Shown in pieces: positions 3,801-40,482 of a DNA stretch of 64,000 bases. The DNA comes from Candidatus Woesearchaeota archaeon (GTDB lineage: Archaea; Nanobdellota; Nanobdellia; Woesearchaeales; ARS49): the NCBI GenBank assembly GCA_038891615.1, contig JAWADY010000002.1, positions 64,994-128,993 on the forward strand. Direction: 5' to 3'. A program made the translations under genes and the position numbers. The notes beneath the pieces are model-generated. The model saw only the letters and a program-made list of their open reading frames with translations. It was not told where the DNA came from and did no database searches. Position 1 is the stretch's first letter. Each line of letters starts with the position of its first letter.

Positions 3801-6355
3801 ATGGGCATGTTGCGCTAAGAGTTACAGCAGAGGATTATGCCGGAAATACAATGGCTTCTGTGCTAAACTTTATTATTGACTCAACAGGCCCGGTCATTTC
3901 TCTGGCACAACCACTATTCGGAATTTCTGACAAGACACCATTTGACATTGTCGTTGAAACAGACCAGCCAGCTATCTGCAGATATTCAACAATTCAAAAT
4001 GTTGACACTGCGAGCATAAGCTATGATGCAATGGCAAAGTTCTACATACCTGAAAAACAAACCGCACAGCACATCATACAAGGCTTTGACGAGCTCACAG
4101 GAAAGCCAGAAAACACGCCCTGGAGGTTCTATGTTGTTTGCAAGGATGGCAAGCAACGCCAGTCTAACGAAACCTTCTGGCTGTCCGTTGATTCTGCTCC
4201 TCCAAAAATAACAGCTGCTTATGCAGAACCAAATCCAATCGTTGAGTACACAGACAGTGAGCTGCTAACAACACTGAAAGTCTCAACAGAACGCAGCTCC
4301 TTCTGCAGTTACAGCACAACAACCACGAGCTTTAGCCCTGAAAATGGTTTTGAAGGGACAGGCATAACTCCAAGGCAAGCGCACAATGCTGTGGTTAAAA
4401 TAACCACTTCTCCGACAACTTATAACATCGCTTGCATTTCACCAACCGATTATGGCAAAGCTGCGCCAAGAACAGCAACAGCAACAATAAAAATCACTGT
4501 TGACGTTGCAGCACCACTAACCATTTCCTGCAGCTATTGCCCTTCATTCTGGAATTCTACCACAAAAAACATATACCTGACCACAAACAAGCGCGCGCAA
4601 TGCTTCTGGACACTTGACAAGACAACCACTTCTTTTGGTACAGTTGGATATGAGCACAGCACCACTCTGAAAGTGCCATCTCTTGGCGAGAAAAAAGTGC
4701 TCTTTAGCTGCAATGCAGGCGCCCAAAGTGCAACCCTTGAGTATTCATTTCTTGTAGACAACAGCCCTCCTGTAATGCTCTATGTTAGTGATAACTCAAG
4801 CCTTAAAGAAGATACAGAGCATAGCTATTTCACAGATAGGTTAAGGGCAGCATGGCTCGGGCAGGATAATGAAAGTGGAATAACACGGTATTATTACTCT
4901 TTAATCGAAAAGGCAAACAACGCTGTTGTGATAAATTGTTCACCTGGCTCTCAACAAAACAATTGCCGATTCTCAACAGTACTTGATGGAAATTTCTTTG
5001 ACATTACGCAGGACCATAATGGAAAGTCGCTCAATTTAACAGACGGCTTTAGTTATTTCTTGAAGGTTTGGCCCCTAAATAGGGTTGGTCTTCTTGGAAA
5101 TCCAATGGACTCGGATGGAGTTGTAATAAACAAAAGCAAAAAGCCAGCTCACTGCAGCGATGGAATAACAAATGAAGGCGAATCAGGGCAGGACTGTGGT
5201 GGAGAGTGCGAGCCTTGTCCTGATGGTCAGCCTTGTAGGTCTGATTCGGACTGTCTCTCAAAAACCTGTATAGAAGGTTCGTGCAAGGCTCCGAGCTGTA
5301 CAGATTTAAGAAAGAATGGTAATGAAAGCTCAATCGATTGTGGTGGGAGCTGTCCAACAAAGTGCGAAGCTGGTAAAAGTTGTAACACTGACAGCGATTG
5401 CAAAACAGGACTAAGCTGTATATCTGGTGCATGCGCAGAACCAACAGCTTGCGAGAATGGTATACTTGATGGGCTTGAAACAGACATTGACTGCGGAAGG
5501 GTTTGTCCAACAAAATGCGCAGCTGGAAAGGGCTGTCTTGATAATAAAGATTGCGCTGATGGGCTATATTGTGTTAGTGGTGTTTGTTCTTCAACAACTC
5601 CAACCGCTGATTCTGATGGTGATGGTGTCACTAATGATCTTGACCAGTGCCCAAACACTCCGAAAGGTGAAAAAGTAGATAAAAACGGTTGTTCAGCAAG
5701 CCAGCGTGACACCGATGGAGATGGCATGAATGATGCTTGGGAGATACGCTATGGCTTTGATCCTGAGAATCCTGCTGATGCTTATACAGATGTCGATGCT
5801 GATGGCCTTAGTAATCTTGAGGAATTCAAGTTAGGAACTGATCCAAGAAACCCAGATACTGATGGTGATGGTTGGAGTGATGGGGCTGAGTTCAAGGCAG
5901 GAACAGACCCTCTAGACCCTGCCTCAAAGCCATCCGCCCCTATTGTGAGAGCTTTGCCATGGCTGTTGCTTGTTGCAATCCTTGCCATAGCCGGTTACGC
6001 AGCTTACAAGTACAGGAAGCAAATTGCTGCAATTTTTGTAAGGAAAAAGGTAATTCCTTTGCCAAAGCCGCCTGTGGTGTGGAGACCGCCACCAAGGCCT
6101 GTCCAAAGAGTTGTGCGTGTTCCAACAAGAGCAGAGTTAATCATTGAACAGCTTAGAAAGATTGCCCGAGCTACAAAGGCTGAAGAAGAGGAATACATTC
6201 CTGTAGAAGAGCTTGCCAGAAGGGCAGCTGCGCTAGAGCCAACAGAAGAAGTACTTAAGCATCTAAAGGCAGCAGTAAGAAAAAGCCCTGAGTTTGCAAG
6301 GGCTGCAGCTGCCCAGCCAAAGCTCAGAGCGATGCTCAAGAAAAAATCAAAATGA
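875..6355 (+). CDS. giant (1826 aa) Cys-rich, Ca-binding-repeat surface protein / putative adhesin with a C-terminal membrane anchor
   Basis: N-terminal hydrophobic signal/anchor (IGIFVVLFFVVIGIAVIA) and a Cys-rich N-terminal third. Three blocks of thrombospondin-type-3-like motifs (DSDGDGxxD, e.g. TDSDGDGIPDWWEIKYGLNPNN). The central part has recurring domain-boundary motifs (DKTPP, DSTGP, DSAPP, DNSPP) typical of tandem Ig-like domains. Three ~48-aa Cys-rich modules follow. A single TM (LPWLLLVAILAIAGYAAY, ~nt 5950-6010) is followed by a ~115-aa K/R/P/A/E-rich tail. Confidence 0.85.
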   Translation: MLRKEVIGIFVVLFFVVIGIAVIAQEEKTGCCCDENGTAMDYSPFHTQNECTDPFTILVPLSSENISKYTPDNISKICIDACGGAAPKPLPLPLAPKITFFKAEPLMGQKKFLLTWEINQTPNVIYIDRCKGNDCTNFGNIATFAGTSRSYVDDDASLEWLTNYTYRLRIVNTITSPPQESSMTASSSLGDIECWNRFDKTPFCISEYYYWNEPIQSYLKNFGYFGFSFTDNFARQVRTVFGVTNLDHIGKLDSRCHVVGINRLSQSSSRCKSNETCLVVDSNTICITPSPCDTSFNATSASCENTPSGTPSYCFSDKSQSVIERCYSCDKRMSCYDYRSKEACERDACGIGDCIWKPTYGAIGVGVCINPSQNNCLLCDKKTGDLLSGLDSKKWPSLLAYNELFDACSQLKAEALGKCLAVTDPSTGKTSPKTCEQATCSDYKTQQECNADTCGLGICKWFDSPTFRGCAKDADTPPQAPATDSDGDGIPDWWEIKYGLNPNNRDDAGSDSDGDGLSNLDEWLRGTLPNNPDSDGDGVSDLNDNCPGTPSNTFQVDSNGCPLPVSDTTDSDDDGIPDWWERKYGLNPNNPADAGSDSDGDGLSNLDEWLRGTLPNNPDSDGDGVSDLNDQHPGTPSNTQVDSNGRPPQGNGKPDCIDPNTGEIDPACEADKWSPETVIIPVGDRGAVKYLYIQITDQFKSTGEKLTIAHSGTGTKAEYFPKGYSTFLCVGSLCSPNVRVNATPLTVVNGFLTINGKPLGLQLKDGSNILRFYSQDPANNNEQVKQLEVNACTGCQGPALITPIDIEGARIVNGEYYTKLTQPQIKLSFDAKAELVLKRLVFGNSFTELSSSPQSGFSQNYTLLPPELAEAKYVLQINARGENGISSSNTPYSFNLTIDKTPPLLSFNVEQNSILENPDQSFVLSFNEPVFVTSIFFDEEHVAQNGRKYVFTRNLTSELKQVNSSKYNLTVNGIPDGHVALRVTAEDYAGNTMASVLNFIIDSTGPVISLAQPLFGISDKTPFDIVVETDQPAICRYSTIQNVDTASISYDAMAKFYIPEKQTAQHIIQGFDELTGKPENTPWRFYVVCKDGKQRQSNETFWLSVDSAPPKITAAYAEPNPIVEYTDSELLTTLKVSTERSSFCSYSTTTTSFSPENGFEGTGITPRQAHNAVVKITTSPTTYNIACISPTDYGKAAPRTATATIKITVDVAAPLTISCSYCPSFWNSTTKNIYLTTNKRAQCFWTLDKTTTSFGTVGYEHSTTLKVPSLGEKKVLFSCNAGAQSATLEYSFLVDNSPPVMLYVSDNSSLKEDTEHSYFTDRLRAAWLGQDNESGITRYYYSLIEKANNAVVINCSPGSQQNNCRFSTVLDGNFFDITQDHNGKSLNLTDGFSYFLKVWPLNRVGLLGNPMDSDGVVINKSKKPAHCSDGITNEGESGQDCGGECEPCPDGQPCRSDSDCLSKTCIEGSCKAPSCTDLRKNGNESSIDCGGSCPTKCEAGKSCNTDSDCKTGLSCISGACAEPTACENGILDGLETDIDCGRVCPTKCAAGKGCLDNKDCADGLYCVSGVCSSTTPTADSDGDGVTNDLDQCPNTPKGEKVDKNGCSASQRDTDGDGMNDAWEIRYGFDPENPADAYTDVDADGLSNLEEFKLGTDPRNPDTDGDGWSDGAEFKAGTDPLDPASKPSAPIVRALPWLLLVAILAIAGYAAYKYRKQIAAIFVRKKVIPLPKPPVVWRPPPRPVQRVVRVPTRAELIIEQLRKIARATKAEEEEYIPVEELARRAAALEPTEEVLKHLKAAVRKSPEFARAAAAQPKLRAMLKKKSK
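2321..2815 (+). repeat. in-frame tandem duplication (258-nt unit, 86 aa) encoding a triple DSDGDG Ca-binding module
   Basis: Copy 1 spans 2321-2578 (TDSDGDGIPDWWEIKYGLNPNNRDDAGSDSDGDGLSNLDEWLRGTLPNNPDSDGDGVSDLNDNCPGTPSNTFQVDSNGCP...). Copy 2 spans 2579-2815 (TDSDDDGIPDWWERKYGLNPNNPADAGSDSDGDGLSNLDEWLRGTLPNNPDSDGDGVSDLNDQHPGTPSNTQVDSNGRP). They are near-identical at the DNA level by eye, with a 3-nt deletion in copy 2. Confidence 0.9.
5153..5593 (+). repeat. three tandem ~48-51-aa Cys-rich modules within the giant protein
   Basis: The modules are CSDGITNEGESGQDCGGECEPCPDGQPCRSDSDCLSKTCIEGSC, CTDLRKNGNESSIDCGGSCPTKCEAGKSCNTDSDCKTGLSCISGAC and CENGILDGLETDIDCGRVCPTKCAAGKGCLDNKDCADGLYCVSGVC. The Cys spacing is conserved. 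Confidence 0.8.
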
Positions 6356-6852
6356 GACTTGGCCAAATAGTTGGGCAAATATTTCTTTTCTTGTTGGCAA
6401 CAATTGTTTTTGTTTTTATAGTTGTTTATGGCTATCGCGCAATAGGCAACCTTGTTGCAAAAGGTGAGCAAGCAGACCTAGTGCGATTCAACAGCGAGCT
6501 CAGTTCCGCAGTTAGTGCTATATCCCTTGACTATGGCAGCGTGCGTTGCCTAGAGCTCAGCCTTCCAAAAAGATATAGAACCTTTTGTTTTGTCGGGCAG
6601 GAGCCTGACATAGGCGCACTTTCCTTGGTCAGCCCATTAATTGCAAGTGCTGTCCAGTCAGGGATTAAGCAAAATGTTTTTTTAATCCCCCCTTCACCGC
6701 TTCAACTATATCTAGAAAAGGCAACGACAAAAGCAGAGGGAGGATTTTTTTGCATAAATACAAGCGGACCAACAAATCGCTTGCTACTCAGGCTTGAAGG
6801 TGGCGCAGGAGGAATTGCAGAGCTACAAAAATGGCAAGGAGCAAGCTGTTAA
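6352..6852 (+). CDS. prepilin-like protein (short basic leader plus hydrophobic helix)
   Basis: N-terminus is MRLGQ/IVGQIFLFLLATIVFVFIVVYGY. The start overlaps the giant-gene stop (ATGA at 6352-6355). Confidence 0.6.
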   Translation: MRLGQIVGQIFLFLLATIVFVFIVVYGYRAIGNLVAKGEQADLVRFNSELSSAVSAISLDYGSVRCLELSLPKRYRTFCFVGQEPDIGALSLVSPLIASAVQSGIKQNVFLIPPSPLQLYLEKATTKAEGGFFCINTSGPTNRLLLRLEGGAGGIAELQKWQGASC

Positions 6853-7820
6853 TTCCAAAGCACAGAAAAGGCCAGATAGAAGCGCCAGTAAGTTGGATAT
6901 TCATACTTATTGCAGGAGCTGTAATCCTTCTTTTTTTCTTTTCAACAACCATTAAGTTGCGTGACATTGCAAAACAAAAGCTTTCAATAACCCTTTTGTC
7001 AAACTTAGATGCACTCATCTCTAGCTCATCCGTTGCAAAAGGTACAAGCCAGCTGCTGCCGATTTATGACCAGCAACTTGTTTTTGAATGTACACAGGCT
7101 TGTCTTTGCGAGCTTTCAGTCCTTGGCGCAAAAAAGCCATTTAAAGACAGGCTGATTTTTGCTCAGCAAAAGGTTTTTGGAAGAAATGCGCTATTTTGGG
7201 CTCTTGACTGGAAGGAGCCATTCAGGATTGCTAATTTTCTTTACATAACAGACAGCTCAAGCAAATATTGGTTGGTTGGGGATTCGAGCAGCGAACCACT
7301 TAAGACAATAAAGTTCCTCCTTCCTAAGAATCTTAGTGCGGAGTTCGTAGACTCCACCCAAAACATCAAGCCAGGAAATTTCAAGAAAAGCAGGATTGTT
7401 CTTTTTGACAAAGCACTGGATGAAAGCCTTGCAGATAGTTTTCCCAAAGCATCTGAGCTAACATTACTTGTTGTCAACACCCAGAACAAAGAGCTTAAGT
7501 GGTACAAGAGAAAAGGTAGCAAGCTGGAAGTGCTGTCAAATGAAGGGGCGGATAACTACAAAAGCATTCCCCATCTTTTGGGAGCAATTTTTAGTGACGA
7601 GCCGCAGCTTTACGCCTGCCAACAAGCAGCTTCTGAGGACAGGAAAGCGGCCATAAAAGAAATCTATGTTGCACGTGTGCAAAAATTGATGCAAATTGTG
7701 CCAGAAGAACGTGGTTGCAGCGCGCTTTACGAAGAGACGTTCAAAAACATTAACGCTCCTGAGGCGCTTGAGGAGATTAATGAGGAATTGCTAAAAAAGA
7801 GTTGTCCAACAATATACTAA
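6831..7820 (+). CDS. prepilin-like protein, 329 aa
   Basis: N-terminus is MARSKLLIPKHRKGQ/IEAPVSWIFILIAGAVILLFFF (K-G-Q-I-E class III-type motif). It overlaps the upstream gene by 22 nt. Confidence 0.65.
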   Translation: MARSKLLIPKHRKGQIEAPVSWIFILIAGAVILLFFFSTTIKLRDIAKQKLSITLLSNLDALISSSSVAKGTSQLLPIYDQQLVFECTQACLCELSVLGAKKPFKDRLIFAQQKVFGRNALFWALDWKEPFRIANFLYITDSSSKYWLVGDSSSEPLKTIKFLLPKNLSAEFVDSTQNIKPGNFKKSRIVLFDKALDESLADSFPKASELTLLVVNTQNKELKWYKRKGSKLEVLSNEGADNYKSIPHLLGAIFSDEPQLYACQQAASEDRKAAIKEIYVARVQKLMQIVPEERGCSALYEETFKNINAPEALEEINEELLKKSCPTIY

Positions 7821-7821
7821 A

Positions 7822-8352
7822 ATGGCAAACAATGCATCTCCAAGCAAAAAGGCTCAGATAAAGATGTTTGAGAATATCGCTGTCCTCGTGATATTCTTTT
7901 TTCTTCTGGCTTTTGGTACAAGCTTTTACTTTACACTTCAAAAAAGTTCCCTTCAGCGTGAAATGGAACGCATTGCGCAGCTTGGAAACATTCAGCAGGC
8001 GCTTAGGCTTACATTCTTACCAGAGCTTGACTGCTCATTTGCTGCTGTACAAACTGAAAATTGTTTTGACAGGCTTAAGTTTGATGCTCTTGCAGATCAG
8101 CTTAAACCAGGTAGCCAGCGATGGCTTGAGTACTCTGCAATCCTTGGTTTTACTAGTATAAAACTAAAGACTGTTTATTCCAGCCTCTCTCCCCCGCCTG
8201 AAGAGAAACTTCTGTACGAAAGAAAGCTGAACGCAACTGCAATTCGCACAGAGATTCCTGTCTTGATTTGTGAAAACGGTTGCGACCCGCTAAATCAAAG
8301 CTATTCCTTCGGCATCCTTGAGGTGACAAGCTATGTTAGAAGGGCAACCTGA
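7822..8352 (+). CDS. prepilin-like protein, 176 aa
   Basis: N-terminus is MANNASPSKKAQ/IKMFENIAVLVIFFFLLAF. The start lies 1 nt after the upstream stop. Confidence 0.65.
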   Translation: MANNASPSKKAQIKMFENIAVLVIFFFLLAFGTSFYFTLQKSSLQREMERIAQLGNIQQALRLTFLPELDCSFAAVQTENCFDRLKFDALADQLKPGSQRWLEYSAILGFTSIKLKTVYSSLSPPPEEKLLYERKLNATAIRTEIPVLICENGCDPLNQSYSFGILEVTSYVRRAT

Positions 8353-8854
8353 TGGCATTGCTGTGTTGAAGGGATTAAAGAGAGCAAAAGGCGGGCAAAT
8401 GGAAATAATTGGTCTAACAATCATCATTCTTCTTGTTATAATTGGGGTGCTTTTTGGAATACAGTTTGTGCTCAAGGCAAAGCCGCCCACAATTGGACGA
8501 GAGTTTAGGGAATCGCAGTACGCAGCCAACTTCCTAAGCACTCTTACAGGTACAACAAGCGCATGTAATGGTTTGAGCATCACACAACTTTTACAGAACT
8601 GCGTGACAAGGACAGGGATTGACTGTCCATCAGGAAAGGGTGCTTGTGAGGAGGTTGAGGCTCTTATAGAAACAATCCTTGATAAAACAATTGGCAAGTC
8701 GGGACAAAACAGAGCATACCAACTTATGGTAAAAGGCAGCAACATTGACATTACTAAGTCTAATCGGGGAGGATGTCCGGGCGAAAAAGAGGTTGCAGAA
8801 CACACACTTCCAACAAGAGCTGGAGTAGTTTCTATACGCCTCGAGTTGTGCTAA
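8333..8854 (+). CDS. prepilin-like protein, 173 aa, Cys-containing
   Basis: N-terminus is ...LKRAKGGQ/MEIIGLTIIILLVIIGVLF. It overlaps the upstream gene by 20 nt and is the last gene of the operon. Confidence 0.6.
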   Translation: MLEGQPDGIAVLKGLKRAKGGQMEIIGLTIIILLVIIGVLFGIQFVLKAKPPTIGREFRESQYAANFLSTLTGTTSACNGLSITQLLQNCVTRTGIDCPSGKGACEEVEALIETILDKTIGKSGQNRAYQLMVKGSNIDITKSNRGGCPGEKEVAEHTLPTRAGVVSIRLELC

Positions 8855-8856
8855 AA

Positions 8857-10827
8857 CTATTTGCTAAAAGGATTTCTCATTTGCTTTGCTACCCAGACTG
8901 GGCTAAAATCTTCATAATCATTATCAGTAAGCTGCTCGAGCTTATCCTTTTCAATGTTGTAAACAAAGATTTCGCAATCTCTGTCTTTTTGTTTCTGTCC
9001 AAAACGAAACCAAGGGCAAGCAGAAAAGGCAATGCCTTTTGAGTCTTGCGACCAAGCAATGTTGTCCTCATTTACAAAAAAATTGTTTGGAATGCTAACT
9101 TTTTTGATGCTTAGTTTTGGCCAATCCGCTATATTGACAATGGTTACAATACTGCTCCCCTTATACCTTATTGCAAAATGTTTCAAATCTGGAGAGTTAT
9201 ACATTGCTAATGCCTGGTCTGGAAGTTTTGTCACAAATTTTGGCTTGTCCACACCGTTCTTACAAGATTCTTTTCTTTTTTTCTGGCAAGAGGCTAAGTC
9301 ATAAAGGGTGGCTTTCTCGAGTGCTAGAAAGTAAAGAAGGTTTTGGCTTTCACCTTTTGGATGATAAGGACTGGCTGCGAGGCTAAAGAACAAGCCAGGC
9401 TTTGCAAAAGTCAGTGCAGTAACATAATATCCCTTTTTTTCAAAAATCTTAAGTTTGATTGGGCTTTCTGATCCAAAGATTTTATAAGCATATATCTTGC
9501 CCTTCTTCTCATTGTTGGCATAAACGAGCCAGTTAAAATCAAACCACTCAAAGGCTTCCCACTCTGATTTGTCGTCGTACCCTGTTGATAAATTCTTTAT
9601 TTTGTTCTCTTCCGTCTTTAAAAGGGGAGCGAGCCTGATAGTCTTCCAGGACTTTTCTGCAACGCATCCACATTGTGGTGAGATCTTTATTTTGTGATAA
9701 AAGGATAACCCAGAACTTTCAGCAACATCCCCAAGCTTTGGAAAGAAGTAATGTAGTTTGTTGTCTATCACCACACCAACAGTTTCTCCATCGCTGCTTT
9801 TTATTAGGTTTTTGGCTTCCTTTTTTTTAAACACAACCACATTATGCGTTTCCTTTAATGGTGACCGTGGATAAACAAAGTTTATTCCGAAGTTGTCATC
9901 TAATCGTGAAATAAAGTATATTTTCTCATCAGTGACCAATGAAGAAAGCCAGATGAAGAATGAGGCTGTTGTGACAAACGCCGACCCTAAAAACCATTTC
10001 CTGTTTTTGCGCCACCAAAGATACCTGCACGCCTTTTTAGCGCTCCATCTTTTCTTTAGATTTGTTTGAAGAAAGCCAGAAATAAGTTTGCGAAGTGGAG
10101 CTTTTTTAAGTCGTTCATATTCTCCAGAAATTATTTTTTCTCGCAACCTTTCACGCTCAGCATCCTCAAAAGGAAAGCTACCAGTTATAAGCTTGTACAG
10201 TGCAACGCCTGCCGCCCAACTATCACTTTGTTGCGATGGCATAAAGCCTTTTAGTAGTTCTGGCGCACGATAGAGCAAGCTACCATAGCAAGGGCCGTAG
10301 TGTAGCTCCTTGCTGTTCGATAGTCCGAAGTCAACAATTTTTATCTTTCCTTCAGAAAGAATGAGGTTTTCAAGGCTCAGGTCACCATGTGTAACACCTC
10401 TTGAGTGCAAAAAGTCAAGTCCTTTACAAATCTGTTCCGCGCATTCAATGAGTTGCTTTTCATCGAGTTTGCCTGCAACCTCGCTCAGCTTTCTGCCTTC
10501 CACATACTCTTCAACAATAAATGGCAGGCCAGTCTTTTCGTCTATGTTAACAAAGTAGATTTTAGCAATATGTTCATGGCCTTTGCCGCGCTCCTCACGC
10601 AACTTTGTAAGAATTTTTGCCTCGCGCTCAAATGTGCTTTCAATGCTTACATTCCTATAAGCTGGAAATGAGCGCGAATGTTTCAGAATTTTTAGTGCAA
10701 CTGTTATGCCTTGTTGAGTATCATAAGCCTTCCAAACTTCTTTAAAAGCGCCGCCACCAATCTTTTCAATGAGTCTAAACTTACCGTTATTAAAAAAAGC
10801 ATTATCCTTAAATTCTTCTTCAGCCAT
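8857..10827 (-). CDS. membrane Ser/Thr protein kinase with a predicted extracytoplasmic beta-propeller (TolB/PD40-like) domain
   Basis: Hanks kinase motifs are present: G-loop GGGAFKEV, VALK, HGDLSLENL, DFG (VDFGLS) and APE (YRAPE). One TM follows (FLGSAFVTTASFFIWLSSLV). The ~350-aa C-terminal part carries repeated IAWSQDSKGIAF / FSPVW-type blades. Confidence 0.85.
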   Translation of the reverse strand: MAEEEFKDNAFFNNGKFRLIEKIGGGAFKEVWKAYDTQQGITVALKILKHSRSFPAYRNVSIESTFEREAKILTKLREERGKGHEHIAKIYFVNIDEKTGLPFIVEEYVEGRKLSEVAGKLDEKQLIECAEQICKGLDFLHSRGVTHGDLSLENLILSEGKIKIVDFGLSNSKELHYGPCYGSLLYRAPELLKGFMPSQQSDSWAAGVALYKLITGSFPFEDAERERLREKIISGEYERLKKAPLRKLISGFLQTNLKKRWSAKKACRYLWWRKNRKWFLGSAFVTTASFFIWLSSLVTDEKIYFISRLDDNFGINFVYPRSPLKETHNVVVFKKKEAKNLIKSSDGETVGVVIDNKLHYFFPKLGDVAESSGLSFYHKIKISPQCGCVAEKSWKTIRLAPLLKTEENKIKNLSTGYDDKSEWEAFEWFDFNWLVYANNEKKGKIYAYKIFGSESPIKLKIFEKKGYYVTALTFAKPGLFFSLAASPYHPKGESQNLLYFLALEKATLYDLASCQKKRKESCKNGVDKPKFVTKLPDQALAMYNSPDLKHFAIRYKGSSIVTIVNIADWPKLSIKKVSIPNNFFVNEDNIAWSQDSKGIAFSACPWFRFGQKQKDRDCEIFVYNIEKDKLEQLTDNDYEDFSPVWVAKQMRNPFSK

Positions 10828-10878
10828 CTCTTTTTTTTAAATTTATGCAAAAATTCTTTAAAAATTTTCCGAACAGCG

Positions 10879-11763
10879 TTATCTTGTTTTCTGGATAACA
10901 GATGGTAAAGCAAGCGCAGGAAGCTGTATGCTCAAGTCGACTATAGAAGCAAGGTGAATGTTTTTCCAGCCGTAACGACGTATTTCCTCAAAAATTCTCG
11001 AAGCTTCGGTTGCCGTTTCCTGTTTTGCATCGAAGACAAATCTGTAGCAAGCGTCAAAAAGCTTGGCAGCCTTTTCATATTGTTTTACAATCTCCTGTTC
11101 AGGAACCGCGCGCTGCTTGACTATCTCTGCAGCAAGATACTTGCACTCGTCACCAATTCTTTCCACACTCCAGACAATGACTGCCTTACGCATAGCCTCT
11201 AGGTGTTCTGATATGACATTTTTTGCAAGATACCTCATGCAGTAATGTGCAAGCCTATTCACATCAATATCGCGCTGCTCTAGATGTTCAAGAGCAGTGT
11301 AATCCCAATTTCGAATAGCTTCTACCGAATCCTCAAGCATTCCTTTTACAAGAAGAAACAACCTCCGATAAAGTGCTGGAAATTCATCTTTTATCTGACC
11401 AGCAACATCACGCAAAATGCAATAGTTGCTCCTTTGTTCAACAGTCTCAAAACCAATTAGCTCAATGAGGGCTTTTTTGACGCGCTGAGGAGTTTCTGCT
11501 TCGAAGTTTGTGATTTTTATTTCATCATAGCCATCCTCATAAAGCCTGACAATAAGCCTTGGCAAGAGGACTCCTGCCTCAGGCGCACTTATTTCTTTGC
11601 TTTTGAAGACCTTTTGAGTGCTTGTTGGAGAAAGCGAAATAAAACCTGGTTGTTCTGACATTTCAATCTCATCTCCTTTCTTTATTCCATACTTTCTTGC
11701 CCATTTCGCAGGAAGACTTACCACAAGCGTTTGCTTGGAAAGCTGAATGACCTTTCTTCTCAT
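10879..11763 (-). CDS. AbrB/SpoVT-domain plus PhoU-like domain transcriptional regulator
   Basis: The N-terminus VIQLSKQTLVVSLPAKWARKYGIKKGDEIEM is a swapped-hairpin AbrB motif. The helical C-terminal ~200 aa resemble PhoU-type repeats. Confidence 0.75.
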   Translation of the reverse strand: MRRKVIQLSKQTLVVSLPAKWARKYGIKKGDEIEMSEQPGFISLSPTSTQKVFKSKEISAPEAGVLLPRLIVRLYEDGYDEIKITNFEAETPQRVKKALIELIGFETVEQRSNYCILRDVAGQIKDEFPALYRRLFLLVKGMLEDSVEAIRNWDYTALEHLEQRDIDVNRLAHYCMRYLAKNVISEHLEAMRKAVIVWSVERIGDECKYLAAEIVKQRAVPEQEIVKQYEKAAKLFDACYRFVFDAKQETATEASRIFEEIRRYGWKNIHLASIVDLSIQLPALALPSVIQKTR

Positions 11764-11910
11764 AATCCTTTGAAATGGTGCTTTGTATATAAAGTTTTCT
11801 ATAGGTATATAATTAAATTTTTATTATATATTTTAAGATAACTTATATATTTTAAGCATAAAATATATACTTTTGTTAATGCACTCACCTAAAAAAAGGA
11901 GGTGAGAAAG
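11764..11910. promoter_or_regulatory. AT-rich divergent promoter region with TATA-like boxes, a 14-bp direct repeat and a Shine-Dalgarno site
   Basis: TGTATATAAAG lies at ~11784-11794, 20-30 nt from the minus-strand ATG. TTATATATTTTAAG occurs twice (11824-11837 and 11843-11856). AAATATATAC lies at ~11861-11870, and AGGAGGTGA at 11897-11905 precedes the ATG at 11911. Confidence 0.55.
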
Positions 11911-12393
11911 ATGTCTGACTTTCAAAAAAAGGATTTGGTAATAATAGCCCATCTCAGGCAGAATGCGCGGATGAAGCTAACAGCAATGTCAAGAAAAACA
12001 GCACTCCCTGTCTCAACAATTTATGACAGGTTACAACTTCATGAAGGAAAGACAATCCTAAAGCATTCGTCTCTCATTGACTTTTCAAGACTTGGCTTTA
12101 GTGCAAGAGTGAATGTTCTCTTCAAACTTGGAAAAACTGATAAACAGGAATTTGTAGCATTCCTATCAAAACATCAGAATGTCAACAGCCTTTACAGGAT
12201 TAATAATGGTTTTGATTTCCTTGCAGAGTGCATTTTTAAGAACATACGAGAACTAGAAGACTTTTTCGAACAACTTGATGCAAGGTTTGACATAAAGCAT
12301 AAAGAGGTTTACCATGTTATTGACGAGCTAAAGCGTGAAGCCTTTTTATCAGACCCTCAATTGATTGAGCTTGCAGGAATTGAAGCAGCCTAA
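11911..12393 (+). CDS. Lrp/AsnC-family transcriptional regulator
   Basis: An HTH N-terminus (DLVIIAHLRQNARMKLTAMSRKTALPVSTIYDRL) is followed by a RAM-like C-terminal domain. The track start at 11902 is a GTG inside the SD site; the ATG at 11911 has proper spacing. Confidence 0.8.
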   Translation: MSDFQKKDLVIIAHLRQNARMKLTAMSRKTALPVSTIYDRLQLHEGKTILKHSSLIDFSRLGFSARVNVLFKLGKTDKQEFVAFLSKHQNVNSLYRINNGFDFLAECIFKNIRELEDFFEQLDARFDIKHKEVYHVIDELKREAFLSDPQLIELAGIEAA

Positions 12394-12493
12394 TCCGCCC
12401 TGAAAGGAAGCAAATGCGTAGTGAATTGCTTGCTCAAACTCAACACACAACAAAGCTTACAAAGCAAACATTTTACGATTTTCAGTAGCAAGC

Positions 12494-12501
12494 TTTAAAT
12501 A
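12494..12501 (+). promoter_or_regulatory. TATA box (TTTAAATA) for the 14-gene prepilin-like operon
   Basis: TTTAAATA lies 43-50 nt upstream of the ATG at 12544. GAGGTG at 12533-12538 is a well-spaced SD site. Confidence 0.5.
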
Positions 12502-12543
12502 CTCTGTACTTACTTTTCTTGAAAAACAAAACGAGGTGTTGAG

Positions 12544-12798
12544 ATGTCAAAAGGTCAAGGCATTTCAATTAATGTTATCATAATAGCTGCGATTGCACTG
12601 CTTGTTCTTGTTGTTCTTTCTGTTATGTTCATAGGCAGGATAGGACTCTTTGGAGTTAAGAGTGTTTCTTGCACAGAACAGGGAGGAACATGTTCTGTTG
12701 ATGTCTGCCCAGCAGGGACAAGGGAGTACACACCTTGGAGGTGCCCTGATACTCCTGAGGGGGCAAAGCAGCGCTGCTGCGTGGCAATAGGGGTGTAA
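12544..12798 (+). CDS. small 6-Cys prepilin-like protein (84 aa), candidate major pilin, paralog 1
   Basis: Sequence is MSKGQG/ISINVIIIAAIALLVLVVLSVMFIGRIGLFG followed by a 6-Cys globular tail ending ...QRCCVAIGV. Confidence 0.75.
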   Translation: MSKGQGISINVIIIAAIALLVLVVLSVMFIGRIGLFGVKSVSCTEQGGTCSVDVCPAGTREYTPWRCPDTPEGAKQRCCVAIGV

Positions 12799-12809
12799 GT
12801 GAATTTTCA

Positions 12810-13079
12810 ATGGCAAAAGCGCAAGGGCTGCCAATAAACACAATCATTATCGTTGCGCTAGCACTTGTTGTTCTTTTAGTCATTGCAGCCATTTTTACTG
12901 GTCGTATACAGCTTTTTGGAAGAGCGCTAAGCAACTGCCCAAAAGGAGAGGGGAAGTGGTGCACAGACAACCCTTCGGATTGCGCAGCTGGCAACGCAGC
13001 AGCAAGTCCGCTAAAAAATTGCAACGAAGATGCTGACCCTGAACCAGAAGGGAGCTATTGTTGCATACCATTGGCATGA
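12810..13079 (+). CDS. small 6-Cys prepilin-like protein (89 aa), paralog 2
   Basis: Sequence is MAKAQG/LPINTIIIVALALVVLLVIAAIFTGRIQLFG with a 6-Cys tail ending ...GSYCCIPLA. Confidence 0.75.
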   Translation: MAKAQGLPINTIIIVALALVVLLVIAAIFTGRIQLFGRALSNCPKGEGKWCTDNPSDCAAGNAAASPLKNCNEDADPEPEGSYCCIPLA

Positions 13080-13366
13080 GAATGGGCAAAATGAGCGGAA
13101 AAAAGGGTGCTGAAGCCATTTGGTACATAATCGCGCTTGTCATTGGGCTAATAGTTCTTGTTGTGCTGGTAGCATTATTTACAGGAAAGGTAAAGCTGTT
13201 TGGCAAGGCAGGAGAAGAAATCGAAAAAGGTGTTCGTGGAAATCTTTGTTTTGAGCAGGGTTTTTGTGAAGCGGGCACTGCTTGTCCTCCTGGTTCAACA
13301 GCAATCCCGCGCCCTGCTGCTGGCTGGACAGATTGCACAGGGATTTGTTGCAAGCAAGTTGGATAA
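13076..13366 (+). CDS. small 6-Cys prepilin-like protein (~96 aa), paralog 3
   Basis: Sequence is MRMGKMSGKKG/AEAIWYIIALVIGLIVLVVLVALFTGKVKLFG with a 6-Cys tail ending ...CTGICCKQVG. The start is chosen at the ATGA overlap (13076). The track start 13058 and the ATGs at 13082 and 13091 are alternatives. Confidence 0.7.
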   Translation: MRMGKMSGKKGAEAIWYIIALVIGLIVLVVLVALFTGKVKLFGKAGEEIEKGVRGNLCFEQGFCEAGTACPPGSTAIPRPAAGWTDCTGICCKQVG

Positions 13367-13398
13367 AGTTTTTATACGCAAGAGCCACTTGATTTTTT

Positions 13399-13512
13399 AT
13401 GCACAAAAGAGGCGTTGAAAAAAGCACTTTGTTATACCTCATCCTAATCCTTATCTTTCTTGCGCTTGCAGCCTATATTCTTGTGAGAATTGCTGGGAGG
13501 ATTTTTGGATGA
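13399..13512 (+). CDS. 37-aa mini prepilin-like ORF (not in the supplied track)
   Basis: My translation is MHKRG/VEKSTLLYLILILIFLALAAYILVRIAGRIFG*. The stop overlaps the next start (ATGA at 13509-13512), and the orientation and operon are the same. Confidence 0.5.
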   Translation: MHKRGVEKSTLLYLILILIFLALAAYILVRIAGRIFG

Positions 13513-14225
13513 GCCTGCTCATTGTCAGAAGGAAGGGAATAACAGAAACAGGATTAGTGGCAATAATCCTTGTCCTTGCCTCTGGCATTGTTCTTGGAGC
13601 TCTTGTCTATCAGTTTACTGTTAAGGGGAAGCAGGTTGGCTCTATCGAGCTTTGCAGACAGAATGTGCTAACTGCTAGCAAAGTTGTAGCGCTTGGCAAA
13701 GCAGATATTTGGCCAATCACCAACTGCTTTACAGAAGACCTTGGCAAACTTCCAGAAAAAGAAGAAGAAGCCATTACTCTGATTGCCGAGGGTATTAGGA
13801 AGTGCTGGTACATGTGGGGCGAAGGAAAGCTAACTCCATGGAGCTCTACATGGCTATCAAGAAACATCATGTGTCATGTTTGTACGATGTTTGAGCCAAG
13901 CGCAGAAGTGAGTATTGAAAAGCTTCATGGTTGGATGAGGACTCACAACATTCCTGGCAAAGAATTAACCTACTATGACTTTTTGAAAGAAGGCTACATC
14001 CCTTTCATCTATCCAGCACTTGAAGAAGAAGCCAAAGCCAAAAAAGTTGACCTCACAAAAGGAATGAAATGGGCTGTCTTTTATGCCTATGGAACGCGCG
14101 CGGATTGGCTAAGATTTCCCCTCATTGGTGGACTTGTGCTTGAAGAACCAAAACAAGGCGTTGCCTTCCTGCCGACAAATGAACTCGGAGGCATATGTAC
14201 ATATACTACGATAAAACTCAAATGA
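13509..14225 (+). CDS. prepilin-like protein, 238 aa (CW..GEG..C.VC family, paralog a)
   Basis: N-terminus is MSLLIVRRKG/ITETGLVAIILVLASGIVLGALVY. The motif ...IRKCWYMWGEGKLTPW...MCHVCTMF is shared with the next gene. Confidence 0.7.
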   Translation: MSLLIVRRKGITETGLVAIILVLASGIVLGALVYQFTVKGKQVGSIELCRQNVLTASKVVALGKADIWPITNCFTEDLGKLPEKEEEAITLIAEGIRKCWYMWGEGKLTPWSSTWLSRNIMCHVCTMFEPSAEVSIEKLHGWMRTHNIPGKELTYYDFLKEGYIPFIYPALEEEAKAKKVDLTKGMKWAVFYAYGTRADWLRFPLIGGLVLEEPKQGVAFLPTNELGGICTYTTIKLK

Positions 14226-15145
14226 AAAGGGCGCAAGTAACAACACAGACACTCTTGGTAGTGCTCGTGCTTTTACTCGTAGCAGCTGTCATCTTTATTT
14301 CTTTTCAGACAAGACTCTTTGGCTTAGCAGAAGCCAAAAGTGCAAAGGATGTTTGCAAAACTTCTGTCTATGCCAATGCGCTGCTTGGAAGAAGTGTTGG
14401 AATCTTTTCTTCGGATATAAAATGTCCAACTCAGTATCTTCAGATAGACAATAGTGATGTTGCACATGCAAAGTTTGAGATTGCAAAAGCTCTGTCAGAT
14501 TGTTGGGAACAATTTGGAGAAGGCAGGCTTGAGCTTTTTTCTGGAGAAGGTGTTTTTTGTTCCGTATGTCATTTGATAACTTTTAAGCACAAAGAAAAAG
14601 CAATAAGCGGGCTTTTAGACTATCTTGCAACTAACAAAAAACCCCTTACTGACAAAAGCTATCTTGATTATCTAACAAGCTATCACACTTCAGGAAGCGA
14701 GGTTCTTAAGGCATATGCAGCTGAAAAGCTCCCGCCTGACATTCTTGACCCATCGCGAGGCAACACCTATGCAACAATCTTCTACTATGTCAAGGGTAAA
14801 GACCATGTGAAGGATGTTATTGAAAGAGCCCAAGCAGCAGCACCTGGCATTGGGCTTGAAGCACTTGGTATCGGATTGATAAAGGCAGGCAGTGCAACAG
14901 CTGGCTTGATTTCAGCAACCGGCATTGGTGCGCCTCTAGGTGTAGTTGTTGCAAAGGTCTCAACAATTGTCGGCGGAGTTTTGATTGTTGGCGGAGCAGG
15001 CTATGCCCTCCTCGCTGGTTGGTTCGGCGGAGTCCCTGTAGAATTCCTCTCACAAGTACGCCTCGAGCCTTACAACGAGCAAACGCTTAAAAACCTCGGA
15101 TGCCAAATCCTGCCTGCAGCTGAAAAAGCAGAGGTTGGAAGGTGA
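14222..15145 (+). CDS. prepilin-like protein, ~307 aa (paralog b) with a Gly-rich hydrophobic C-terminal region
   Basis: The start is taken at the ATGA overlap (14222): MKRAQ/VTTQTLLVVLVLLLVAAVIFISF. It carries the motif ...LSDCWEQFGEGRLELF...FCSVCHLITF. The C-terminal segment is GIGLEALGIGLIKAGSATAGLISATGIGAPLGVVVAKVSTIVGGVLIVGGAGYALLAGWFGG. Confidence 0.7.
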   Translation: MKRAQVTTQTLLVVLVLLLVAAVIFISFQTRLFGLAEAKSAKDVCKTSVYANALLGRSVGIFSSDIKCPTQYLQIDNSDVAHAKFEIAKALSDCWEQFGEGRLELFSGEGVFCSVCHLITFKHKEKAISGLLDYLATNKKPLTDKSYLDYLTSYHTSGSEVLKAYAAEKLPPDILDPSRGNTYATIFYYVKGKDHVKDVIERAQAAAPGIGLEALGIGLIKAGSATAGLISATGIGAPLGVVVAKVSTIVGGVLIVGGAGYALLAGWFGGVPVEFLSQVRLEPYNEQTLKNLGCQILPAAEKAEVGR

Positions 15146-15279
15146 TGAAAAAAGGCATATCCCGCGAGGCATTTGTTTACATACTCTTGGCACTTATTGC
15201 AATCCTCATTGGAGTAATCTTGATAATTTTTTGGGGAGGCGGGGCAGAAAAGGTCCTTAAGTCTCTTGGTTTGGGATAG
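15145..15279 (+). CDS. 44-aa mini prepilin-like ORF (not in the supplied track)
   Basis: My translation is MKKG/ISREAFVYILLALIAILIGVILIIFWGGGAEKVLKSLGLG*. The start overlaps the upstream stop by 1 nt (TGATG). Confidence 0.5.
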   Translation: MKKGISREAFVYILLALIAILIGVILIIFWGGGAEKVLKSLGLG

Positions 15280-15284
15280 CTCAA

Positions 15285-15641
15285 ATGGACAAAAAAGCTG
15301 TTGCAATAGAAACAATAGTCATCCTTCTCCTTGCACTTGTTGCTCTCCTTTTCTTTACAGTCCTTGGAGGAAAGCAGCTTCAATTGGGCAAGAAAATAAG
15401 CTTTTTCATGCCGGGCTGCCCAAAGGGTGTTTTAATAACCACAGAATGTCCATGTGATGGCCAAAAGATAAGTTCAGGTTATTGCTGTGATTTTGGACCA
15501 AGCCAAAAGCCTTGCTTTTGCGTAGAGCGAAATGTTAATAAGTGCGAGGATTACAAAAAGCAAGAGGATTGTGTAAGCAATCCTTGCCAAGTTCAAACTG
15601 CTTGCACCTTTGAACAAGGTGTTTGCAAAAGGGCTGGTTAA
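15285..15641 (+). CDS. Cys-rich prepilin-like protein, 118 aa (12 Cys)
   Basis: N-terminus is MDKKA/VAIETIVILLLALVALLFFTVLGG. The tail is CPKGVLITTECPCDGQKISSGYCCDFG... Confidence 0.7.
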   Translation: MDKKAVAIETIVILLLALVALLFFTVLGGKQLQLGKKISFFMPGCPKGVLITTECPCDGQKISSGYCCDFGPSQKPCFCVERNVNKCEDYKKQEDCVSNPCQVQTACTFEQGVCKRAG

Positions 15642-15645
15642 ATAA

Positions 15646-16071
15646 ATGGCAAAAAAAGGGGTAAGTGGAATACAGGTCGTCATAGCACTTTTGATTGGCA
15701 TCATAGTGCTCTATGTTGTTGTGGCTTTTATGCAAGCACAGTTCAAGAAGGCTGGAAAGAGTATCGAGGAAATAACTCCTTCCACAATCAGCTTTGCGCT
15801 GCAAGGCTGCAGGCTCCAAGCCGCACGAGGTTTTTCTGATGCAGATAAGGATGGATATCCCGACTTTTGTGATGTCTGCGAAGGCGGTGATGACGGAAAG
15901 CACAGCGATGCTGACTGGGTTCCAGATGATTGTGATGCGCATGAAAAAACAAAAGGGCTTCCTGCAAAGGAATGTGGTTGTGAAAAGCCAGAAATGGATT
16001 CTGAAGGCAGGCTGATAAAGAGCTGTGGGAGGCTTCTTTCAATCGAGCCATTTAAGTGCGCGAAAAAATGA
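15646..16071 (+). CDS. prepilin-like protein, 141 aa, with an acidic D-rich/Cys segment
   Basis: N-terminus is MAKKG/VSGIQVVIALLIGIIVLYVVVAF. The segment DADKDGYPDFCDVCEGGDDGKHSDADWVPDDCD looks like a Ca-binding site. Confidence 0.7.
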   Translation: MAKKGVSGIQVVIALLIGIIVLYVVVAFMQAQFKKAGKSIEEITPSTISFALQGCRLQAARGFSDADKDGYPDFCDVCEGGDDGKHSDADWVPDDCDAHEKTKGLPAKECGCEKPEMDSEGRLIKSCGRLLSIEPFKCAKK

Positions 16072-16088
16072 ATTTGGTAAAATGAAAA

Positions 16089-16949
16089 ATGAGCAAAAGG
16101 AAAGGCCAGGAAGAAGTTGGAAGGATGCTTTGGGAACTTGTTGCGCTGATACTGGCAGTAACTGTTATCATTGGAGGGATATTGTTTTTTGGAAGGGCAT
16201 TTGGATTTATTGGTGAGAGCAAAGAGGAACAGGACACAATCTCAAGCTTTTACAGCCTTGCAACAAAACTAAACGAACTGGCGCTGCTTTCAGAGTCATT
16301 CGTTCATGACAGGCTACCACTTTTTATTGGGGAAGGATTTGTAATTGTTGGCTTTGACAAAGCTGGAGATATTTCTGTCAATGGTTGCAGCGATGAAACA
16401 CATCTTGGAGTTCCAGCTACTGACCTCATCCCAAAGCCAGAGTTCTGTGGCGAGTTTGCTTGCATATGCCTCTATTCTGGCATTAGCGAAGAAGTCGGCG
16501 AGAAGCAGCCAATTTCTTGTGCCAAAATTTTCGCTGACAGATTGATTGGCTTGAGTAGTGCGTATCTTGAAAAAAACTATCCCTCTTTTGAGTCTTTTTG
16601 GAAAAACGCAATGGGCTCTCGTAGGGATAAGCCAGAACTACAAAGGTTCATGGTAACAGGGACAGAGCCTTTTAGCACTCTTCTCGAAAAAGACTATCCT
16701 CTTTTCCCAAGCTTTGAAAGCTACCCCTATACCTATTTTGTTCTTCATGGTGAGTGTGAAAACTGGTGGTTTGATGCCAACTTTGGCACACAAAGCCTCT
16801 ATCTTGAAAAAGTGAGGATAAAAGACAGGAACTATTTATTTATCACCGCAGACATCGAGGACTTTGTAAACAAAAGGGTTGCTGCAATAAAGGATTGGCT
16901 AGAGAAGCAAAAGAGTCAAGAGAAAGCCGAGGGAGGGCTGGTTGGTTGA
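16089..16949 (+). CDS. prepilin-like protein, 286 aa
   Basis: N-terminus is MSKRKGQ/EEVGRMLWELVALILAVTVIIGGILFF. Confidence 0.65.
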   Translation: MSKRKGQEEVGRMLWELVALILAVTVIIGGILFFGRAFGFIGESKEEQDTISSFYSLATKLNELALLSESFVHDRLPLFIGEGFVIVGFDKAGDISVNGCSDETHLGVPATDLIPKPEFCGEFACICLYSGISEEVGEKQPISCAKIFADRLIGLSSAYLEKNYPSFESFWKNAMGSRRDKPELQRFMVTGTEPFSTLLEKDYPLFPSFESYPYTYFVLHGECENWWFDANFGTQSLYLEKVRIKDRNYLFITADIEDFVNKRVAAIKDWLEKQKSQEKAEGGLVG

Positions 16950-17784
16950 AATGGTTGTGATTGGCAAGCGAGCCGTTGTTCATCCAGTTGCTCTGACAAT
17001 TGCAGAGCTTATTTTAGCCGCAATTATTGTCCTTGCAATGTACAATTTTGCCTCAAGGGCAAGAGAGCCTGGAAGGCTTGAAAAAGAGTTTGTTGCAAAA
17101 GACCTTGGCTTGCTGCTTGACGCCGTTTCCGTTGGCCAAGGGAGTTACTATTTGGTTTACACATCACCAGCCCTTCATCAAGATTTCAAGATTTCTGCAG
17201 GCGCCCACGAGGTTGTTGTTGATGGCTCAAGGCAGCCCTACGCATCTGGGCGTATAGAAATAAAAGGAGATTCCTTTGGAACAGATAAACTTGTGATCTG
17301 GTCTGAAACTGGAATTCTTGGCACGCCTTCAGCAGTCAAAGGTCACCTGCTACAGCTTCCTTGCGAAAGCCCACTGTCTTTTTCAACTGATAGGCAGCTT
17401 GCGGTAGCTGCTGATGATGGTGCCAAACAACTTGTTGAAAGACTTTTTGTCAAGGACTTAGGGAAAAGGCTGTTGTCAAATGATGAGAAAGGCGCAAGTG
17501 CGCTATTAAAAATTTTCACAGGAACAAAAAATGGGACAGCGAAGGCATATTTTTGGAAGGATGATAAGTCAGCAAGGTCGCTTGCATGCGCCCTTTTGAA
17601 CAGCATTGTCGCTTTTGAAGGAACCAATTCAGCCCTTCTTCTTCCGCTTAATCCTGAGCTTGCACCAAAGCGTTTTGCAGAGCTTGAGAAACAAAAGCCA
17701 GCTGTCTTCCTCGAGCTAGGCCCAGACCTTATTTCAAGCCCTGAACTTGCTCAGGCACTTTATGGTGGTGTTCGAAGTGGCTGA
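16942..17784 (+). CDS. prepilin-like protein, ~277-280 aa
   Basis: N-terminus is (MVE)MVVIGKRA/VVHPVALTIAELILAAIIVLAM. The track start is TTG at 16942; the ATG at 16951 lies 1 nt after the upstream TGA. Confidence 0.6.
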   Translation: MVEMVVIGKRAVVHPVALTIAELILAAIIVLAMYNFASRAREPGRLEKEFVAKDLGLLLDAVSVGQGSYYLVYTSPALHQDFKISAGAHEVVVDGSRQPYASGRIEIKGDSFGTDKLVIWSETGILGTPSAVKGHLLQLPCESPLSFSTDRQLAVAADDGAKQLVERLFVKDLGKRLLSNDEKGASALLKIFTGTKNGTAKAYFWKDDKSARSLACALLNSIVAFEGTNSALLLPLNPELAPKRFAELEKQKPAVFLELGPDLISSPELAQALYGGVRSG

Positions 17785-18900: not shown

Positions 18901-18901
18901 A

Positions 18902-40454: not shown

Positions 40455-40482
40455 TAGTCCACCTCTTTTTGCAATTTAGCCC

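Follow-up and report, generated by a model that had tools for sequence, protein, structure and literature searches.

The question addressed here is why three regulatory genes lie wedged between two blocks of surface-filament-type genes in a 64,000-nucleotide (nt) stretch of the genome of a Candidatus Woesearchaeota archaeon (contig JAWADY010000002.1, positions 64,994 to 128,993; hereafter the window). The three encode a Hanks-type Ser/Thr kinase, an AbrB-PhoU fusion regulator, and an Lrp/AsnC family regulator; an adhesin block lies on one side of them and a pilin block on the other (Table 1). A preliminary description made from the sequence alone had placed them there and proposed that they form a dedicated switch for filament and adhesin expression. 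All three open reading frames (ORFs) are present as described, and the stop codon of the kinase (8857-8859) does lie 2 nt from that of the last adhesin-block gene (8852-8854). The flanking genes encode class-III-signal-like N-termini, with [KR][GA] ahead of a hydrophobic helix, as is usual for archaeal type IV pilin-like proteins. A life attached to hosts is assumed for DPANN archaea, Woesearchaeota included; pili and giant adhesins are the obvious contact organs, and to our knowledge nothing is known of how these are regulated. We found that the regulators and a kinase-type gene beside them are kept at this position in distant relatives. We suggest that the kinase, AbrB-PhoU, and Lrp are very probably one functional unit, and we see an even chance that this unit works as a pilus/adhesin switch through sensing by the kinase.

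As the kinase has no orthologues beyond identical copies from the same population, we anchored the synteny comparison on AbrB-PhoU. The starting set comprised 18 homologues with 29-37% identity, whose named sources are Woesearchaeota, Nanoarchaeota, or metagenome-assembled genomes labeled 'uncultured archaeon'. A seven-sequence alignment gave 63 species-level loci, among the matches listed, and further loci were added by exact look-up. Five genomes (L007, L074, L076, L077, and L078) keep the full layout over ~20 kb, in the order giant adhesin, four pilin-like genes, a kinase-slot gene, AbrB-PhoU, Lrp, a run of pilin-like genes, and RPA. The Lrp/AbrB-PhoU pair thus lies between the adhesin and pilin blocks in every one of them, and the adhesin-block orthologues follow the same order. 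Identity to the window is 49-52% for RPA, 44-52% for Lrp, 30-36% for AbrB-PhoU, and 25-44% for the adhesin-block proteins. Pieces of the same arrangement are found on five partial contigs (L016, L020, L015, L022, and L028). In L074 and L076-L078, Lrp and the gene after it in the pilin operon share 8-14 nt, and the pilin-like genes then follow on the same strand with small gaps; in these four genomes the divergent (Lrp) promoter of the regulators is also the pilin-operon promoter.

The slot gene is not a Hanks kinase in any of the five syntenic relatives. It belongs instead to a family that we call f630 (630-1085 amino acids [aa]; found in 13 loci of the first survey, among the matches listed). 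The f630 gene is on the strand of the adhesin operon, ~33 nt after the last pilin-like gene, and converges with AbrB-PhoU. Its product combines transmembrane (TM) segments at the N-terminus with a helical region of TPR-like type and, at the C-terminus, a kinase-like domain with the pattern KDAHPxNW...ALDFE, in which D475, N480, and D493 are invariant. One member (L031) passes the Pfam APH cut-off (29.8 versus 23.2 bits), and hhalign aligns the f630 N-lobe with that of the window kinase (E=3.7e-4). An AlphaFold2 (AF2) model of P0292 (predicted local distance difference test [pLDDT] score 75-90 in that domain) matches APH(2'')-Ia in Foldseek (E=4.6e-5, TMt 0.47). By its motifs and its modeled bilobal fold, f630 is predicted to have an APH/protein-kinase-like fold. 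The same model also matches TolB and DPP-IV propellers; in P0292 and P0293, both encoded at loci with full synteny, a PD40 propeller of ~370 aa separates TM1 from TM2.

Hence the slot 3' of AbrB-PhoU always holds a predicted membrane kinase-type gene in this clade. Since the relatives carry an APH-like membrane kinase of an unrelated family on the other strand, it is the slot that is conserved and not the gene. In the window lineage, gene order indicates that a Hanks kinase with a PD40-like C-terminal domain displaced f630 in place; its gene lies on the other strand, 51 nt beyond AbrB-PhoU. Such an in-place swap of kinase families is unusually direct comparative evidence for functional coupling of the kinase and the regulators. 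What the relatives keep is the slot with its regulators; the Hanks kinase gene itself is confined to its own species.

The association with kinases extends beyond the syntenic clade. We surveyed the first downstream ORF of at least 100 aa next to AbrB-PhoU genes of Woese-, Pace-, and Nanoarchaeota, among the loci listed. Firm kinase-like calls make up 22 of 67 of these ORFs, compared with 7 of 777 among the remaining ORFs of these loci (odds ratio 54; Fisher p=2e-20, a value overstated because the species are related), and four of the seven background cases lie only 2-4 genes further downstream of AbrB-PhoU. The kinase-like partners span at least three distinct families: 13 are f630, three to four are further APH-like proteins, and five in relatives are Pkinases (L068 twice, L070, L071, and L075), to which the window kinase is added. 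Pfam APH is matched by nine of 65 downstream partners, and six further partners make up a family for which hhalign shows homology to the kinase-like domain of f630 (95.9%). Profile comparison of partner families fam3 and fam6 and of singletons with kinases gave no signal.

These data bear directly on the explanation that the adjacency is an accident, i.e., that a lineage-specific and possibly horizontally acquired kinase landed beside the regulators by chance. The kinase has no homologue in the relatives, its top kinase-domain match (P0002) is a bacterial Pkinase-PD40 protein with 29% identity in a bacterial gene context, and the G+C content of its gene is slightly low (0.396 versus 0.426), a difference that is uninformative as a test of horizontal transfer. 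Against this, the Hanks kinase gene took the place of another kinase-type gene, one that five syntenic relatives keep, and kinase-like genes are ~50-fold enriched at the slot relative to other ORFs of the same loci. Because the layout is conserved in five distant genomes and kinase-like genes are enriched beside AbrB-PhoU, the adjacency is, as judged from gene order, not accidental; synteny and enrichment largely refute chance, which we regard as very improbable. The preliminary description had named a lack of synteny in relatives as the sign of an accidental adjacency, and the relatives do show synteny.

The neighborhood also has a regular geometry. The downstream neighbor is convergent with AbrB-PhoU in 58 of 66 cases (~88%, versus a background of ~16-21%), and in most convergent pairs the 3' ends touch or overlap, the overlap reaching 54 nt. 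Such tail-to-tail contact suggests antisense or termination coupling. On the other side, Lrp is the divergent upstream neighbor of 14 AbrB-PhoU genes of the first survey and of those in L076-L078, and trios of Lrp, AbrB-PhoU, and Pkinase recur in L071 and L075.

Two further observations concern the arrangement itself. In the window, the tail-to-tail junction has moved, and it is the last adhesin-block gene and the kinase gene that meet there (8852-8859). At L009/L010, L014, L048, and L068, two or three AbrB-PhoU paralogues lie within 10 kb, each with its own convergent partner, and at L068 two AbrB-PhoU genes each face a Pkinase; these cases suggest that the two-gene unit of AbrB-PhoU and partner duplicates as a whole.

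The first component of the unit is the kinase. Pfam Pkinase (PF00069) covers residues 18-271 with 147.5 bits (cut-off 31.7; E=6e-43), and the translation contains the glycine loop G24GGAFK, K46, E69, H147-G-D149, N154, D166FG, and A188PE. In the catalytic loop, HGDLSLEN, the Arg of HRD is changed to Gly and the catalytic-loop Lys to Ser, so the kinase is of the non-RD type. This loop resembles those of RIO and Bud32, and the kinase has weak matches to RIO1 and Bud32; NCBIfam models give domain-level similarity to PknB-type and Bud32 kinases and no equivalog. From its motifs the kinase is probably active. Among 5.8 billion proteins, full-length matches are the protein itself or 100%-identical copies from its own population, and the best kinase-domain matches (P0002, P0060, P0096, P0116, and P0119) carry PD40/DPPIV_N domains. 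The 51-nt spacer before the kinase gene has no clear Shine-Dalgarno (SD) sequence, and either co-transcription with AbrB-PhoU or an own leaderless-type promoter is possible.

The predicted TM segment, residues 278-299, is the only uncharged stretch of at least 18 residues in the kinase. This 22-residue segment is preceded by nine K/R in 22 residues and followed by D/E, consistent with the positive-inside rule. As the kinase domain is necessarily cytoplasmic, a single TM segment would place the last ~357 residues, with their six Cys, outside the cell. An exhaustive HMMER search with this ectodomain found 260 proteins, all aligned to its last ~65 residues, with PD40/TolB-type propellers on top (PD40 signal E=6e-14 with phmmer and 2e-11 with hhalign). 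In hhalign, one alignment to a PD40-propeller profile (probability 97%, E=2e-11) spans two consecutive blades, of which a blade profile finds one canonical unit. A PDB sequence search with the ectodomain gave no meaningful match, and a single-sequence AF2 model of it (pLDDT 32) was discarded. We also considered a derivation of the ectodomain from the PD40 loop of P0292/P0293. The matches (BLASTP E=0.006-0.04, one blade; hhalign probability 4-9%) are not significant, and we therefore treat the shared architecture as parallel.

The second component, AbrB-PhoU, joins an N-terminal MazE_antitoxin/AbrB domain (PF04014, residues 11-46, nt 11626-11733; 30.3 bits versus a cut-off of 24.7) to a single PhoU repeat (PF01895, residues 133-212, nt 11128-11367; 32.7 bits, above cut-off). 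The AbrB motif VSLPxKW...GIKKGD is kept in the 18 homologues, and E201 and D205 of the PhoU-domain motif E201xxxD205 are among the invariant or near-invariant positions of the homologue alignment. The match to the PhoU structure 4q25 in PDB is weak (E=0.03), and the NCBIfam model phoU_full gives 24.3 bits versus a cut-off of 130; the protein contains a PhoU domain and is not a PhoU orthologue. Its homologues, among those found, are confined to Woese-, Pace-, and Nanoarchaeota (24-38% identity). A neighbor-joining tree of them had long unresolved branches and was not used for gains or losses.

The third component is a member of the Lrp/AsnC family. Its AsnC_trans_reg (RAM) domain scores 31.7 bits (cut-off 25) and its HTH_AsnC 22.4 bits, below the cut-off of 27. 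Alignment to the NCBIfam Lrp model extends over residues 6-139 of 149 and scores below the equivalog cut-off. All three proteins stay under the equivalog thresholds of NCBIfam. The most likely start codon of Lrp is ATG 11911, which is preceded by GGAGGTGA as SD sequence and gives the 160 aa of the NCBI annotation, rather than GTG 11902.

Between AbrB-PhoU and Lrp lies a divergent, AT-rich control region whose elements are given in Table 1. In an alignment of this intergenic region from 11 species, each of the two promoters has an invariant TATA box, which reads (G)TATATAAAnTTTTC on the AbrB-PhoU side and AAAGTATATA on the Lrp side, and the central palindrome is conserved. An insertion of ~18 nt in the window, relative to the other species in the alignment, creates the second direct repeat. 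The architecture is conserved in at least 11 species. The 14-bp repeat is, from its distribution, an element of the regulators' own control region and not a pilin-gene motif, and the region as a whole is probably autoregulatory.

Two structures near these promoters were seen in passing. At the place of the SD-masking hairpin of the window, the Lrp leaders of the relatives have (T)TCCGG(A) inverted repeats, and the hairpin itself is absent there. A 16-nt inverted repeat (88% complementary) has one arm at 11729-11744, in the AbrB-PhoU coding start, and the other at 12454-12469, in the spacer between Lrp and the first pilin gene. It flanks the divergent promoter and the Lrp gene and is near chance by a rough estimate.

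Combining these elements, we propose a path from the cell surface to the promoter. The kinase would sense an extracellular cue, e.g., host or surface contact, through its propeller-like ectodomain. It would then change the activity of AbrB-PhoU, and possibly also of Lrp, either through phosphorylation on Ser/Thr or through direct contact via the PhoU domain. The regulators would in turn act on operator repeats in their own promoter and at the adjacent pilin/adhesin operons, switching filament and adhesin output.

The target of the kinase could also be a different one. It might act directly on the pilus apparatus or on pilin-like proteins (e.g., the assembly ATPase or platform), with Lrp and AbrB-PhoU as an independent pair. 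In the relatives, the kinase-like gene points the same way as the adhesin operon and is probably transcribed together with it rather than with the regulators, and the window does encode a T2SSE ATPase. This explanation is less easily reconciled with the many lineages in which a kinase-like partner adjoins AbrB-PhoU with no pilin or adhesin genes nearby, or with the window kinase gene itself, which is co-directional with AbrB-PhoU and 51 nt downstream of it. We consider direct action on the pilus quite unlikely.

Several observations weigh against a kinase-driven pilus/adhesin switch. First, the sensor is incompletely defined: the Kyte-Doolittle 19-mer maximum of the TM segment is a borderline 1.60, Pfam finds no match at E<=0.5 in the ectodomain alone, including none to PD40, and most of the ectodomain (its first ~245 residues) has no assignable fold. 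The earlier label of a beta-propeller-like ectodomain is therefore plausible and only partly shown, with the two C-terminal PD40-like blades detected and the first ~245 residues matching nothing. Second, the preliminary description had pointed to the 14-bp repeat as a motif to look for upstream of other pilin genes; no copy of it or of its 11-nt core occurs in the 64 kb outside 11824-11870, and none precedes pilin or adhesin genes. Third, Lrp and the pilins of the window are 150 nt apart, and this spacer has a TATA of its own; given its T tracts, TTTAAATA and SD sequence, the pilin block there probably has its own promoter. Fourth, partners are mostly convergent with AbrB-PhoU, and so neither co-transcribed with it nor sharing its promoter, and many are phosphatases or nucleotide enzymes rather than protein kinases. 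Fifth, the Lrp/AbrB-PhoU pair occurs with no pilin genes nearby in ~10 lineages, so the module is portable and its pilus/adhesin embedding is specific to one clade. The claim of a dedicated filament switch is supported by the conserved adjacency and weakened by these pilin-free pairs. Finally, the ORF calls of the survey were crude (ATG-only, greedy) and its genomes are related and non-independent.

Some of these points feed the main rival explanation. The module may be non-specific to pili and have a phosphate-related role: in a phosphate/nucleotide-status module, AbrB-PhoU would sense phosphate or a phosphorylated metabolite with its PhoU domain and could be paired with any phosphoryl-transfer enzyme, and its position at the pilus locus would be inherited synteny that has no regulatory meaning for the filaments. 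The non-kinase partners fit such a role, as they include four His_Phos_1 histidine phosphatases, three HAD/NT5C proteins, PHP, DHH, a PEP-utilising enzyme, and guanylate kinases. So do the conserved PhoU ExxxD motif, the pairs away from pilins, and the lack of an operator copy at the window pilin genes. Three features of the clade argue otherwise. The Lrp promoter is the pilin-operon promoter in four relatives, where f630 is moreover the last gene of the adhesin operon; the order of the locus is kept across very deep divergence; and the partner in this clade is of a membrane receptor type with extracellular PD40, unsuited to cytoplasmic phosphate sensing. We judge a phosphate module unlikely.

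Each part of such a switch has known counterparts. Bacterial PhoU contacts the sensor kinase PhoR and PstB, and Mycobacterium tuberculosis PknD is a receptor Hanks kinase with a beta-propeller sensor. The PhoU of PhoR/PstSCAB systems resembles the proposed switch in that a PhoU-fold protein communicates with a kinase, and the PhoU domain and ExxxD are present here. However, bacterial PhoU has two PhoU repeats, no DNA-binding domain, and a histidine kinase partner, whereas here a single PhoU repeat, joined to AbrB, is all that is detected, and a Hanks or APH-like kinase takes the place of the partner. Bacterial Pkinase-TM-PD40 receptors such as P0002 have the layout that is predicted for the window kinase, i.e., a cytoplasmic Hanks kinase, one TM segment, and an extracytoplasmic propeller. 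They differ in that the 29% identity covers the kinase domain only, two blades are recognisable in the window protein, and its host is an archaeon.

The closest parallel in filament control is the Arn network of Sulfolobus acidocaldarius (ArnC/D/S, ArnA/B, ArnR/R1, and AbfR1), in which Ser/Thr phosphorylation and DNA-binding regulators control a type-IV-pilus-like filament (PMC5300886, PMC5007285, PMC6396743). Ser/Thr kinases of the Sulfolobus archaellum network are ArnC and ArnD (PMC5300886, PMC5007285), and its regulators are encoded beside the filament locus, as here. The window differs in having AbrB-PhoU and Lrp, a receptor kinase with an ectodomain, a DPANN host phylum, and no FHA/vWA pair. 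General Pfam results for the locus, with no direct Arn comparison run, contain no FHA, vWA, or ArnR-type domain, and no PP2C or FHA gene is among the best 25 Pfam families listed for the window. An ArnB_C match (E=0.39) falls on an unrelated coiled-coil protein (43471-44184) and was dismissed as noise. The parallel with ArnR, AbfR, ArnC, and ArnD drawn earlier survives as an analogy, and homology to Arn proteins is unsupported.

A link between AbrB and kinases has been described in Bacillus subtilis, where phosphorylation of AbrB, a swapped-hairpin factor, by the Hanks-type kinases PrkC, PrkD, and YabT modulates its binding to DNA (Kobir et al. 2014, as cited in PMC6213207). There, however, the kinase and AbrB genes are unlinked and AbrB lacks PhoU; here they are adjacent and AbrB is fused to PhoU. 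Among archaea, SpoVT/AbrB-PhoU factors have been annotated as a regulator class (Thermococcus kodakarensis TK2245 and the Pyrococcus furiosus PhoU family; PMC7325993, PMC6316755). These euryarchaeal proteins have the same two-domain architecture, with no link to kinases or pili described in the papers found. AbrB-PhoU fusions are thus a known but uncharacterised class of archaeal regulators. An incomplete literature search, which is not proof of novelty, found nothing on a pairing of AbrB-PhoU with kinases or on the regulation of DPANN pili. The kind of each component is known; the conserved pairing, the placement at a pilus/adhesin locus, and the in-place kinase swap are new.

The locus is a concrete candidate for a sensor-to-promoter pathway whose defined DNA elements and proteins could be tested in vitro without culturing. 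The pairing of AbrB-PhoU with kinase-like and phosphatase genes provides a working hypothesis for a common and uncharacterised class of archaeal factors, and the pattern points to a large membrane APH-like family as signaling kinases. Tentatively, and as a speculation that we would not favor, AbrB-PhoU, paired tail-to-tail with a phosphatase or with a membrane kinase-like protein of APH-like or Hanks type that often has a PD40 sensor, could be a widespread, undescribed DPANN signaling system. It would be a functional counterpart of two-component systems in which PhoU takes up the phospho-signal or docks to the kinase and AbrB is the output, turned into a master switch of the host-attachment pilus/adhesin locus in one Woesearchaeal clade. 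If so, the kinase swap in the window would be a natural experiment in which the kinase input proved interchangeable.

Table 1. Coordinates of the regulatory genes, their domains, the control elements, and the flanking blocks in the window
Feature	Position (nt)	Strand	Details
Adhesin block	875-8854	+	1826-aa TSP3/Big_13 protein and four pilin-like genes (166, 329, 176, 173 aa)
Hanks-type Ser/Thr protein kinase, receptor architecture	8857-10827	-	656 aa; Pfam Pkinase E=6e-43
Probable ectodomain	8860-9930	-	residues 300-656, ~357 aa, 6 Cys; no Pfam match
Two PD40/TolB-type beta-propeller blades	8875-9198	-	~residues 544-651; HMMER, hhalign
Predicted single TM segment	9931-9996	-	residues 278-299, WFLGSAFVTTASFFIWLSSLVT; hydropathy
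Catalytic kinase domain	10015-10776	-	residues 18-271; Pfam, motifs from translation
Spacer, AbrB-PhoU stop to kinase start	10828-10878	-	51 nt; T5 tracts; TTTTTAAA box ~33 nt before ATG
AbrB(SpoVT/MazE)-PhoU fusion transcription regulator	10879-11763	-	294 aa; both domains above Pfam cut-offs
Divergent control region	11764-11910		between AbrB-PhoU and Lrp
AbrB-PhoU transcription factor B recognition element (BRE)/TATA	11785-11799	-	GTATATAAAGTTTTC, read on the - strand
Central palindrome	11806-11815		TATATAATTA
14-bp direct repeats	11824-11837, 11843-11856		TTATATATTTTAAG, both exact
Lrp TATA	11859-11869		inverted copy of the 11-nt core of the repeat
SD-masking hairpin, Lrp leader	11884-11906		CTCACCT-N9-AGGTGAG
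Lrp/AsnC (feast/famine) family regulator	11911-12393	+	160 aa; AsnC_trans_reg 31.7 bits
Spacer, Lrp to first pilin	12394-12543	+	150 nt; T4 tracts ~12470-12485; TTTAAATA 12494-12501; SD GAGGTG 12533-12538
Pilin block	12544-19870	+	13-14 pilin-like genes, class-III-signal-like N-termini

Other genes may belong to the filament system. A T2SSE-type secretion/pilus ATPase (40483-42753, - strand; E=1.5e-12) adjoins a gene for a 680-aa protein with no Pfam match (the pair spans 38265-42753); this protein is probably the membrane platform. The two look like machinery that assembles the products of the pilin blocks, which lie at a distance of ~20 kb. In L076-L078, an Amidase_3 protein (N-acetylmuramoyl-L-alanine amidase-type) that begins with a pilin-like N-terminus is encoded in the pilin operon, ~9.5 kb downstream of f630. 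It may serve the filament system by cutting cell walls; we noticed no counterpart of it in the window.

Elsewhere, Rfam finds two tRNAs only over the window, neither within the regulator region. Two runs of three tandem, paralogous-looking genes lie at 53452-55158 (membrane proteins of ~185 aa, the first two with no significant Pfam match) and 55174-56806 (proteins of ~170-200 aa). A 728-nt gene-free gap (48148-48875) beside OapC- and OapB-like genes (PF09845 and PF09846; 46737-48147) and a small GTPase contains two copies of a ~102-nt direct repeat (48251-48352 and 48371-48472; 76% identity, period 120), and may be a replication-origin region.

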